This document shows, in pieces, positions 25,500-29,999 of a DNA stretch of 64,000 nt. This DNA is from Anolis carolinensis. Taxonomy: Eukaryota. The translations under genes and the position numbers were made by a program. Under the pieces are notes generated by a model. The model had not been told where the DNA came from. It saw only the letters and a program-made list of their open reading frames with translations, and made no database searches. How positions within the stretch are numbered: the stretch's first letter is position 1; each line of letters starts with the position of its first letter. The stretch spans positions 11,583,198 to 11,647,197 of the forward strand of contig NW_026943826.1 of NCBI RefSeq assembly GCF_035594765.1, written 5' to 3'.

Positions 25500-28400
25500 C
25501 AAAGAGGCGTGGCCAGAAGAAGCCACGCCCCCGGAGCAAGACAGGAAGAGATATGGGAGGGACAAAGAATAAGGAGGGGGCGTGGCTAGAGAAGGTCCCG
25601 CCCCGGGGGCGAAGAGAAGGATGGGAAGCAAAAAGACATAGGAGGCGTGGCCAGAGGAGAGGAGAGGGGCGTGGCTAGACATAGCGCAAGACTAGGAAGA
25701 GAGAAGTGGGAGGGGCGTGGCTAGAGGAGGCCCCGCCCCACGGGCAAAGAGAAGAAAGCTGGAGTAGCAGAGAAGGAAGAGGGGGCGTGGCTAGACATAG
25801 GGCAAGAGAAGAAAAGTAGGAGGGGCGAAGAGGGAGGGGCGTGGCTAGAGGAGACCCCGCCCCAATGGCAAAGAAGAAAGCTGGAGTAGCAGAGAAGGAA
25901 GAGGGGGCGTGGCTAGACATAGGGCAAGAGAAGAAAAGTAGGAGGGGCGAAGAGGGAGGGGCGTGGCTAGAGGAGACCCCGCCCCAATGGCAAAGAAGAA
26001 AGCTGGAGTAGCAGAGAAGAGGGGGCGTGGCTAGACATTGGGCAAGAGAAGAAAAGTAGGAGGGGCGAAGAGGGAGGGGCGTGGCTAGAGGAGACCCCGC
26101 CCCAATGGCAAAGAAGAAAGCTGGAGTAGAAGAGGAGGCGTGGCTAGAATGGGGCAAGACTAGGAAGAGAGAAGTAGGAGGGGCGTGGCTAAAGGAGGCC
26201 CCGCCCCAATGGCAAAGAAGAAAGCTGGAGTAGCAGAGAAGGAAGAGGGGGCGTGGCTAGACATAGGGCAAGAGAAGAAAAGTAGGAGGGGCGAAGAGGG
26301 AGGGGCGTGGCTAGAGGAGACCCCGCCCCAATGGCAAAGAAGAAAGCTGGAGTAGCAGAGAAGGAAGAGGGGGCGTGGCTAGACATAGGGCAAGAGAAGA
26401 AAAGTAGGAGGGGCGAAGAGGGAGGGGCGTGGCTAGAGGAGACCCCGCCCCAATGGCAAAGAAGAAAGCTGGAGTAGCAGAGAAGGAAGAGGGGGCGTGG
26501 CTAGACATAGGGCAAGAGAAGAAAAGTAGGAGGGGCGAAGAGGGAGGGGCGTGGCTAGAGGAGACCCCGCCCCAATGGCAAAGAAGAAAGCTGGAGTAGC
26601 AGAGAAGGAAGAGGGGGCGTGGCTAGACATAGGGCAAGAGAAGAAAAGTAGGAGGGGCGAAGAGGGAGGGGCGTGGCTAGAGGAGACCCCGCCCCAATGG
26701 CAAAGAAGAAAGCTGGAGTAGCAGAGAAGGAAGAGGGGGCGTGGCTAGACATAGGGCAAGAGAAGAAAAGTAGGAGGGGCGAAGAGGGAGGGGCGTGGCT
26801 AGAGGAGACCCCGCCCCAATGGCAAAGAAGAAAGCTGGAGTAGCAGAGAAGGAAGAGGGGGCGTGGCTAGACATAGGGCAAGAGAAGAAAAGTAGGAGGG
26901 GCGAAGAGGGAGGGGCGTGGCTAGAGGAGACCCCGCCCCAATGGCAAAGAAGAAAGCTGGAGTAGCAGAGAAGAGGGGGCGTGGCTAGACATTGGGCAAG
27001 AGAAGAAAAGTAGGAGGGGCGAAGAGGGAGGGGCGTGGCTAGAGGAGACCCCGCCCCAATGGCAAAGAAGAAAGCTGGAGTAGAAGAGGAGGCGTGGCTA
27101 GAATGGGGCAAGACTAGGAAGAGAGAAGTAGGAGGGGCGTGGCTAAAGGAGGCCCCGCCCCAATGGCAAAGAAGAAAGCTGGAGTAGCAGAGAAGGAAGA
27201 GGGGGCGTGGCTAGACATAGGGCAAGAGAAGAAAAGTAGGAGGGGCGAAGAGGGAGGGGCGTGGCTAGAGGAGACCCCGCCCCAATGGCAAAGAAGAAAG
27301 CTGGAGTAGCAGAGAAGAGGGGGCGTGGCTAGACATTGGGCAAGAGAAGAAAAGTAGGAGGGGCGAAGAGGGAGGGGCGTGGCTAGAGGAGACCCCGCCC
27401 CAATGGCAAAGAAGAAAGCTGGAGTAGAAGAGGAGGCGTGGCTAGAATGGGGCAAGACTAGGAAGAGAGAAGTAGGAGGGGCGTGGCTAAAGGAGGCCCC
27501 GCCCCAATGGCAAAGAAGAAAGCTGGAGTAGCAGAGAAGGAAGAGGGGGCGTGGCTAGACATTGGGCAAGAGAAGAAAAGTAGGAGGGGCGAAGAGGGAG
27601 GGGCGTGGCTAGAGGAGGCCCCGCCCCAAGGGCAAAGAGAAGAAAGCTGGAGTAGCAGAGAAGAGGGGGCGTGGCTAGACATTGGGCAAGAGAAGAAAAG
27701 TAGGAGGGGCGAAGAGGGAGGGGCGTGGCTAGAGGAGACCCCGCCCCAATGGCAAAGAAGAAAGCTGGAGTAGCAGAGAAGGACGAGGGGGCGTGGCTAG
27801 ACATAGGGCAAGAGAAGAAAAGTAGGAGGGGCGAAGAGGGAGGGGCGTGGCTAGAGGAGACCCCGCCCCAATGGCAAAGAAGAAAGCTGGAGTAGCAGAG
27901 AAGGAAGAGGGGCGTGGCTAGACATAGGGCAAGAGAAGAAAAGTAGGAGGGGCGAAGAGGGAGGGGCGTGGCTAGAGGAGACCCCGCCCCAATGGCAAAG
28001 AAGAAAGCTGGAGTAGCAGAGAAGAGGGGGCGTGGCTAGACATTGGGCAAGAGAAGAAAAGTAGGAGGGGCGAAGAGGGAGGGGCGTGGCTAGAGGAGAC
28101 CCCGCCCCAATGGCAAAGAAGAAAGCTGGAGTAGCAGAGAAGGAAGAGGGGGCGTGGCTAGACATAGGGCAAGAGAAGAAAAGTAGGAGGGGCGAAGAGG
28201 GAGGGGCGTGGCTAGAGGAGACCCCGCCCCAATGGCAAAGAAGAAAGCTGGAGTAGCAGAGAAGAGGGGGCGTGGCTAGACATTGGGCAAGAGAAGAAAA
28301 GTAGGAGGGGCGAAGAGGGAGGGGCGTGGCTAGAGGAGACCCCGCCCCAATGGCAAAGAAGAAAGCTGGAGTAGAAGAGGAGGCGTGGCTAGAATGGGGC

Positions 28401-29920
28401 AAGACTAGGAAGAGAGACGTAGGAGGGGCGTGGCTAAAGGAGGCCCCGCCCCAATGGCAAAGAAGAAAGCTGGAGTAGCAGAGAAGGAAGAGGGGGCGTG
28501 GCTAGACATAGGGCAAGAGAAGAAAAGTAGGAGGGGCGAAGAGGGAGGGGCGTGGCTAGAGGAGACCCCGCCCCAATGGCAAAGAAGAAAGCTGGAGTAG
28601 CAGAGAAGAGGGGGCGTGGCTAGACATTGGGCAAGAGAAGAAAAGTAGGAGGGGCGAAGAGGGAGGGGCGTGGCTAGAGGAGACCCCGCCCCAATGGCAA
28701 AGAAGAAAGCTGGAGTAGAAGAGGAGGCGTGGCTAGAATGGGGCAAGACTAGGAAGAGAGAAGTAGGAGGGGCGTGGCTAAAGGAGGCCCCGCCCCAATG
28801 GCAAAAAAGAAAGCTGGAGTAGCAGAGAAGGAAGAGGGGGCGTGGCTAGACATTGGGCAAGAGAAGAAAAGTAGGAGGGGCGAAGAGGGAGGGGCGTGGC
28901 TAGAGGAGGCCCCGCCCCAAGGGCAAAGAGAAGAAAGCTGGAGTAGCAGAGAAGAGGGGGCGTGGCTAGACATTGGGCAAGAGAAGAAAAGTAGGAGGGG
29001 CGAAGAGGGAGGGGCGTGGCTAGAGGAGACCCCGCCCCAATGGCAAAGAAGAAAGCTGGAGTAGCAGAGAAGGACGAGGGGGCGTGGCTAGACATAGGGC
29101 AAGAGAAGAAAAGTAGGAGGGGCGAAGAGGGAGGGGCGTGGCTAGAGGAGACCCCGCCCCAATGGCAAAGAAGAAAGCTGGAGTAGCAGAGAAGGAAGAG
29201 GGGCGTGGCTAGACATAGGGCAAGAGAAGAAAAGTAGGAGGGGCGAAGAGGGAGGGGCGTGGCTAAAGGAGGCCCCGCCCCAATGGCAAAGAAGAAAGCT
29301 GGAGTAGCAGAGAAGGAAGAGGGGGCGTGGCTAGACATTGGGCAAGAGAAGAAAATTAGGAGGGGCGAAGAGGGAGGGGCGTGGCTAGAGGAGACCCCGC
29401 CCCAATGGCAAAGAAGAAAGCTGGAGTAGAAGAGGAGGCGTGGCTAGAATGGGGCAAGACTAGGAAGAGAAAAGTAGGAGGGGCGTGGCTAAAGGAGGCC
29501 CCGCCCCAATGGCAAAGAAGAAAGCTGGAGTAGCAGAGAAGGAAGAGGGGGCGTGGCTAGACATTGGGCAAGAGAAGAAAAGTAGGAGGGGCGAAGAGGG
29601 AGGGGCGTGGCTAGAGGAGGCCCCGCCCCAAGGGCAAAGAGAAGAAAGCTGGAGTAGCAGAGGGGGCGTGGCTAGAATGGGGCAAGACTAGGAAAGAGAA
29701 GGAGGGGCGTGGCTAGAGGAGGCCCCGCCCCACGGGCAAAGAACTGGAGTAGCAAAGAGAGGGCGTGGCCAGAAAAGTCCCCGCCCTCGGGACATAGCAG
29801 GAAGAGGTAGAAAGCCAAGAGAAAGAGGAGGGGGCGTGGCTAGAGAAAGCCCCGCCCCGGAGGCGAAGAGAAGGAAGAGGCAGACGAGGAGGGGGCGTGG
29901 CTAGAGAAGGCCCCGCCCAG
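25500..29920. repeat. ~4.4 kb purine-rich minisatellite (~122 bp unit, higher-order ~1.29 kb) made of GC-box/KLF/CCAAT motifs, directly upstream of ERRFI1
   Basis: The unit contains GGGGCGTGGCT twice plus CCCCGCCCCAAT. The 122 bp period is visible in the ORF track (26189, 26311, 26433, 26555, 26677). A variant block recurs 1291 bp apart (27483 and 28774). Confidence 0.95.
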
Positions 29921-29926
29921 GGGATG

Positions 29927-29999
29927 TATAAAAGCGGCACCCGGCTGGGGCGCTGGAGCAGGACGTGAGTGGAGGCGCGTGCGCAGTGGAGCACCTTGG
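29927..29999 (+). promoter_or_regulatory. ERRFI1: ERRFI1 TATA box and putative non-coding first exon
   Basis: TATAAAAG at 29927-29934 after GC boxes. Donors gtgagt (29965) and gtaagg (30000). Acceptor ttccag before 30433 leads to the ATG at 30469. Confidence 0.7.

Follow-up and report, generated by a model that had tools for sequence, protein, structure and literature searches.

A tandem array of SP/KLF motifs at the ERRFI1 promoter of the green anole and its relation to the adjoining promoter module

Results

The ERRFI1 promoter array

We analysed a stretch of 64,000 nucleotides from the green anole Anolis carolinensis (NCBI RefSeq assembly GCF_035594765.1, contig NW_026943826.1, positions 11,583,198 to 11,647,197, forward strand), hereafter the window, in which the gene ERRFI1, coding for an inhibitor of EGFR, is preceded by a long tandem array of GT and GC boxes, which we take to be SP/KLF motifs. 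Tandem Repeats Finder (TRF) reports this array at 25703–29662, with a period of 122 bp, 33.6 copies and 90% matches, and degenerate units extend it to 25506 on the left and to 29926 on the right, where it abuts a putative TATA box; a preliminary description, made by eye from the sequence, had given roughly 35 units of about 100–122 bp and the same end point. When the array is cut at GGCGTGGC, 76 half-units are obtained over 25506–29926, comprising 40 of A type, in which a GT box is joined by an inverted GC box, and 36 of B type, which have a GT box and no GC box. The features of the array are as follows (window coordinates).

25506–29926, plus strand: whole SP/KLF-motif array, 76 half-units (40 A and 36 B)
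25506–25713, plus strand: left degenerate proto-units, recognised by alignment and bridged to unique flank
25714–29761, plus strand: homogeneous core of A+B dimers of 104–122 bp, with 30 CCAAT
26754–27974, plus strand: 1,291-bp higher-order repeat, copy 1
28045–29265, plus strand: 1,291-bp higher-order repeat, copy 2
29762–29926, plus strand: three promoter-proximal A-type modules (GT and GC box, without CCAAT), the likely unit source
29927–29934, plus strand: TATAAAAG, putative TATA box

Within 25500–29934 we counted 76 copies of GGCGTGGC, 67 of which are the full GGGGCGTGGC, together with 36 CCCCGCCCC GC boxes and 30 copies of CCCGCCCCAAT; the remaining 59.6 kb of the window hold only 6 copies of GGGGCGTGGC. 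Taken with 39 CCCGCCC cores, the 76 GGCGTGGC amount to about 115 intact SP/KLF cores, in line with the earlier estimate of some 100 boxes, and deaminated variants are absent (0 found). The plus strand is 76.5% purine with a GC content of 58.5%, and there are 156 CpG, or about 4 per unit, both much as first described. At a CpG observed/expected ratio (o/e) of 0.53 the array as a whole falls short of a CpG island (GC >55%, o/e >0.6), a level reached by the proximal interval 29601–30300 only.

A higher-order repeat of about 1.29 kb had also been noted, and the best self-match indeed lies at a lag of 1,291 bp, linking two copies with 2 internal mismatches across ~1,220 bp. Further blocks of 344 and 954 bp are nested within the array, and the half-units fall into 25 types arranged in an ordered mosaic, several of them singletons.

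Other expectations were borne out in part or not at all. CCAAT had been described as usually overlapping the GC box; in the array core 30 copies do so, and it was not found in the TATA-proximal or the outermost modules. Purines immediately 5' of CCAAT belong to the NF-Y consensus, whereas all 30 plus-strand copies read GCC-CCAAT-GGCA, so that GCC precedes 30/30 sites and the context for NF-Y is poor. The array had been proposed as a G-quadruplex (G4) hotspot, yet no match to the canonical three-tetrad motif (four G3 runs, loops up to 12) was detected in it; it contains 63 two-tetrad motifs, with a G4Hunter maximum of 1.92 and values >=1.5 in 7.6% of scoring windows. A hairpin between the inverted GT and GC boxes is likewise not unusual (z=-0.81).

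The array is a real feature of the assembly, and both of its edges recur in independent sequencing runs: the left flank is joined to the first units in 4/4 runs, from four studies, and on the right contigs of runs X2 and X3 extend from the last units through the TATA box. Edge variants were seen among the runs, whose contigs cannot size the array. Runs X3 and X16 cover the array and promoter and not 30756–30818, a pattern that we do not read as a sign of open chromatin.

Origin of the repeat unit

The repeat unit appears to be confined to this locus. All 19 matches to a two-unit query of the genome (in a search that skips very common words) fall at ERRFI1, and neither the unit nor a parent was found at many loci, as would be seen in a dispersed or short interspersed element (SINE)-derived satellite, an alternative raised in the preliminary description and excluded here. 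Comparison of a core A unit with the TATA-proximal module gives 29/34 identical positions (z=4.2 with the shared core left out), and 52/61 positions agree between the unit at 25579, on the left edge, and the one at 29833, next to the promoter (z=7.7). These alignments agree with the proposal that diverged proto-units remain at both edges and that the proximal module was amplified; they support derivation of the array unit from the TATA-proximal promoter module of ERRFI1, and the three A-type modules at 29762–29926 are the likely source. When the B half-unit is aligned with A, a gap of 12 bp covers most of the GC box, and here the similarity is weaker (z=2.6). The array resembles promoter variable number tandem repeats (VNTRs) in being a single-locus, head-to-tail repeat of a promoter element carrying predicted factor motifs.

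Other SP/KLF arrays in the genome

A second array of such boxes is present in the window itself, in the bidirectional promoter of P3H1 and C1orf50, where it forms a 75-bp repeat of 6.6 copies at 19296–19789.

19265–19960, minus strand: second SP/KLF array, unrelated to the first, in the interval separating the start codons of P3H1 and C1orf50 (15 CACGCCC boxes)

A 46-bp array in P3H1 intron 1 (18173–18808) follows it.

Genome-wide, a triple-GGGCGTGGC pattern gave 338 matches; of the two control patterns, the reversed one gave 2 and the scrambled one 0. The matches listed represent at least 47 triple-GT-box loci, with 63 further matches outside the list; the loci include three apparent duplicates (C7/C8 and two C18/C26 contig pairs) and three related copies on contig C1, and the remainder carry mutually unrelated units. 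A triple-GC-box pattern gave 324 matches, the first 100 listed comprising 16 loci. Among these a GC-box array at C6:437409–441633 extends over ~4.2 kb with 125 boxes, a 55-bp period and higher-order structure, so the ERRFI1 array cannot be called the largest SP/KLF array of the genome. The near-identical loci on C7/C8 and C18/C26 suggest that the assembly has kept haplotype or sex-linked duplicates, and the C1 copies (C1:2430361–2493228) are three related 54-bp arrays, two of ~28–32 copies, in which a GT box is paired with a CRE-like GACGTC.

Among the matches listed, GT- and GC-box loci lie mostly on contigs that are small or close to the ends of larger ones: on the large contigs C1–C6, 13/13 GT-box loci are no more than 10 Mb from an end, and the 41-Mb contig C9 alone holds 16. 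Sequences were analysed for 43/46 other GT loci and 16/16 GC loci, 59 in all. With the C6 array left out, 38/58 SP/KLF clusters have a CpG-island-like 300-bp flank, compared to 64/359 box-free arrays. Ten of the 59 loci adjoin an exon identified as an N-terminal coding exon, belonging to TXNDC17, COPE, talin, a PA-domain protein, GPI, GUSB, NAA30, a TAF-domain protein, NAA25 and PRKRIP1; at the TAF and PRKRIP1 loci the motifs form clusters in which TRF calls no array, and three of the ten have only about 2 copies. Three further first-exon names were not confirmed by comparison with PDB, and in two Pfam scans most of the open reading frames had no Pfam match. The ERRFI1 array is therefore one of dozens of mostly unrelated SP/KLF motif-rich repeats in this genome, and a reading of it as a device specific to ERRFI1 is not supported, given that equivalent arrays with unrelated units accompany many housekeeping genes as well as the P3H1/C1orf50 promoter, and that 28–40% of the DNA in the regions sampled is tandemly repeated.

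CpG retention within arrays

We counted transitions among the copies within arrays, at columns outside the boxes. In 43 SP/KLF arrays these affect 45/206 CpG columns versus 207/1,461 non-CpG C/G columns, and in 266 box-free background arrays 390/877 versus 1,274/8,992. Per array (those with at least 2 CpG columns, a few paralogous arrays being counted separately) the median CpG excess is -0.02 for SP/KLF arrays (n=33) and 0.31 for the background (n=154; P=5e-8). Since the SP/KLF class does not show the CpG decay of other arrays, as a class it is likely to be largely unmethylated in the germline.

Tandem-repeat background

Background arrays were defined by a period >=20 and >=2.5 copies. By this measure the 264 kb around the window contain 114 arrays, making up 28% of the DNA, and 800 kb of small-chromosome DNA in five blocks of contigs C17 and C9 contain 435, making up 40% (21–56% per block), with units that are nearly all different. 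The ten longest background arrays (3,494–5,337 bp) carry no SP/KLF box. We found no enrichment of SP/KLF loci in arrays: 10/71 are inside one, against 9±7% for 200 shuffled motif sets, of which 40 reached the observed rate; among clusters of >=2 boxes the figure is 8/16. CpG-island-like tiles touch arrays below average in 5/5 blocks (6–43% vs 30–73%), a comparison confounded by exons. From these rates there is consequently no clear promoter targeting of arrays, in what is a small sample.

ERRFI1 and its neighbours

The protein of the gene downstream of the array is 99% identical to one named Anolis carolinensis ERRFI1, and one ERRFI1 only was found in the genome; the single other match, on contig C3, was considered as a paralogue and rejected, as it reads as what we take to be TNK2/ACK1.

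20100–23019, plus strand: C1orf50 (DUF2452), upstream neighbour, 3/4 exons of which match PF10504
30077–30310, plus strand: single-copy motif cluster downstream of the TATA box
30077 and 30298, plus strand: X-box-like motifs
30201 and 30212, plus strand: AP-1 motifs
30259–30274, plus strand: ETS and CRE motifs
30469–30521, 30770–30816 and 33238–34190, plus strand: ERRFI1 coding exons (~351–352 amino acids)

The motifs in the cluster are named according to what we presume them to be. In run X19, which behaves as RNA, the first ERRFI1 junction is spliced GT..AG (30519>30768), and the main contig spans 30099–30519 unspliced. A putative donor at 29999 was not confirmed in this run, and its lack of cover at 29874–29999 is uninformative about the start site because the comparison skips a repeat at 30042–30077. 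At 352 amino acids the anole protein is short (other amniotes have 440–477), its N-terminus is divergent, and its database entry has no Cdc42-binding Pfam domain.

The gene order is TP73, an SLC45 gene, a claudin, P3H1, C1orf50, ERRFI1, a taste receptor and a VAMP gene, in which the exact orthologue names of the ERRFI1 neighbours are partly our presumption. The taste receptor, directly 3' of ERRFI1 at 40700–47733, is of T1R type (ANF_receptor and 7tm_3 matches). The C1orf50 stop codon (23017–23019) is 6.9 kb from TATAAAAG at 29927, close to the ~7 kb first given. Human ERRFI1 is reported to contact a gene-desert locus near SLC45A1 (PMC7199343). In the anole three genes fill the SLC45A1–ERRFI1 interval, so the short distance reflects gene order and is no evidence of enhancer replacement; the suggestion that the array compensates for a lost upstream desert is accordingly set aside.

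Discussion

A probable explanation for these observations, on balance, is that the array is a single-locus minisatellite that arose from the ERRFI1 promoter module, probably through the same local duplication without selection that made tandem arrays of 28–40% of the small-chromosome DNA sampled. In this view it probably lengthens the promoter with unmethylated and largely redundant sequence and is not a tuner particular to this gene. The starting point would have been a monomer of 60–70 bp (GT box, inverted GC box and purine spacer), diverged copies of which survive at both edges. In alignments the B half-unit is missing 12 bp, among them most of the GC box, and the A half-unit carries the CCAAT. 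The A+B dimer has expanded, forming nested blocks with lengths of 344, 954 and 1,291 bp; such nesting is the expected signature of unequal exchange or conversion, which we infer to have been at work. Binding of SP/KLF factors may keep the array unmethylated, as the CpG retention of the class suggests. Output would depend mainly on the proximal few boxes, and array length would therefore be nearly neutral and variable. Under this explanation, generic tandem duplication in repeat-prone small chromosomes happened to catch a promoter module, and a link between satellite density and recombination has been reported in a frog genome (PMC10794172).

Several observations weigh against this explanation. 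Extra promoter repeats raise the expression of human TRIB3 (PMC7425993). The ERRFI1 array taken alone shows transitions at 0/6 box and 1/2 other CpG columns, an underpowered comparison. Within the SP/KLF arrays non-CpG box positions are less variable (10.4%) than matched 9-mers (18.0%), which could reflect selection on the motifs, though ascertainment favours such a result. Only 1/435 background arrays is longer, placing the ERRFI1 array in the top 1%, and there are 7 loci with >=5 boxes, where the controls average 0.6 and reach 7 at most. Moreover, the five C17 and C9 blocks were hand-picked and not random.

An alternative, raised in the preliminary description, is that the array is a functional rheostat, in which ERRFI1 output depends on how many units there are and selection acts on that number. 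The intact state of its ~115 boxes and its position against the TATA box would fit such a role, as would the TRIB3 precedent (PMC7425993), the enrichment of expression-linked VNTRs at promoters (10.1101/2020.12.16.423078) and the appearance of the errfi1 promoter as a top-1% divergence outlier in two comparisons of A. frenatus (PMC12596200, section 9, Table S11). However, the Table S11 entries do not involve A. carolinensis. Recent homogenisation alone predicts intact boxes, the same architecture is seen at many housekeeping genes, and SP/KLF loci are no more frequent in arrays than the background rate. We therefore consider a rheostat unlikely.

It has also to be asked whether expansion is aimed at promoters: where PRDM9 is missing, meiotic breaks would hit open promoters and preferentially amplify their motifs, and the SP/KLF sites would hold the array open and feed further expansion. 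PRDM9 is absent in the green anole according to the literature (PMC8892340; see also PMC5519329 on recombination in PRDM9 loss), and the end-biased loci of C1–C6, the 16 loci of C9, the apparently germline-unmethylated state of the arrays and the excess of high-copy box clusters over controls all point in this direction. Against it, CpG-island-like tiles touch arrays below average (with the confounding noted above), box loci are in arrays no oftener than shuffled motifs, and box-free arrays are equally long, which makes such targeting improbable. It is similarly doubtful that a PRDM9-less lizard routinely expands promoters on small chromosomes and at chromosome ends, each with a unit of its own, to give SP/KLF minisatellites free of methylation, with open chromatin attracting meiotic breaks that lengthen the arrays and add further sites, so that dozens to hundreds of genes, ERRFI1 included, would have a hypervariable expression dial.

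The array may also exist at a length that the assembly inflates, or as a rare long allele, typical alleles having ~3–8 units. Among the listed contigs, and restricted to pieces without other letters, those of the major unit reach 3–24% of the assembly-expected depth in 4/4 runs, compared to 50–65% for a minor-unit piece and 112–147% for a near-unique edge piece, but contig depth is no copy number and may be biased against purine- and GC-rich repeats. The low depth is thus a weak hint that alleles are shorter, that sequencing is biased or that the assembly is inflated; of the "homotypic VNTR" of the preliminary description, the tandem array is real and variation in its number rests on this hint. 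The 25 half-unit types, several of which occur once, form an ordered mosaic that does not resemble simple over-expansion, and we judge an inflated or rare length to be quite improbable.

Sp1 sites protect CpG islands from methylation, and the array separates the promoter from a 105-bp array that is low in CpG (o/e 0.26). It is nonetheless very improbable that it serves as a methylation barrier, shielding the ERRFI1 promoter from repeat-rich DNA and C1orf50 read-through 2.5–7 kb upstream, for which a few boxes would suffice.

Read as a promoter minisatellite, the array can be compared with several known systems. The 33-bp promoter VNTR of TRIB3 is likewise a native promoter element with a transcription factor site, repeated head-to-tail at one locus, but it has 1–5 copies and a shown expression effect (PMC7425993), whereas the ERRFI1 array, known here from assembly sequence, has ~34 copies of a two-part 122-bp unit, some 115 SP/KLF boxes and higher-order structure. 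In the promoter VNTRs of MAOA and EIF3H, and the repeats termed eVNTRs and mVNTRs, promoter-proximal repeats may similarly alter motif density and methylation (PMC12776774; 10.1101/2020.12.16.423078); those systems are mammalian and their polymorphism was measured, whereas in the anole dozens of promoters carry unrelated units with only the SP/KLF core in common. The recombination-associated subtelomeric satellites of frogs, for which unequal crossing over is invoked (PMC10794172), and SINE-derived satellites of squamates (PMC10702118) are also local sequences amplified near chromosome ends. In contrast, the anole unit is promoter sequence from one locus, no dispersed parent of it was found, and its class keeps its CpGs.

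In the open-access literature we found no description of the ERRFI1 array or of the SP/KLF array class, and no account of such array-rich anole microchromosomes; a literature search on the ERRFI1 promoter likewise returned nothing. The study that lists errfi1 among diverged promoters in A. frenatus comparisons makes no mention of tandem repeats in its accessible part (PMC12596200). The ERRFI1 array joins the known promoter minisatellites, and by itself the locus is a large but ordinary example; the genome-wide class matters more. That class offers a natural series in which to ask whether the number of homotypic sites changes output beyond a few copies, and it bears on whether promoter-aimed recombination in vertebrates without PRDM9 reshapes promoters. 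Such arrays may, in addition, confound anole work that relies on scans of promoter divergence or on short-read assemblies.

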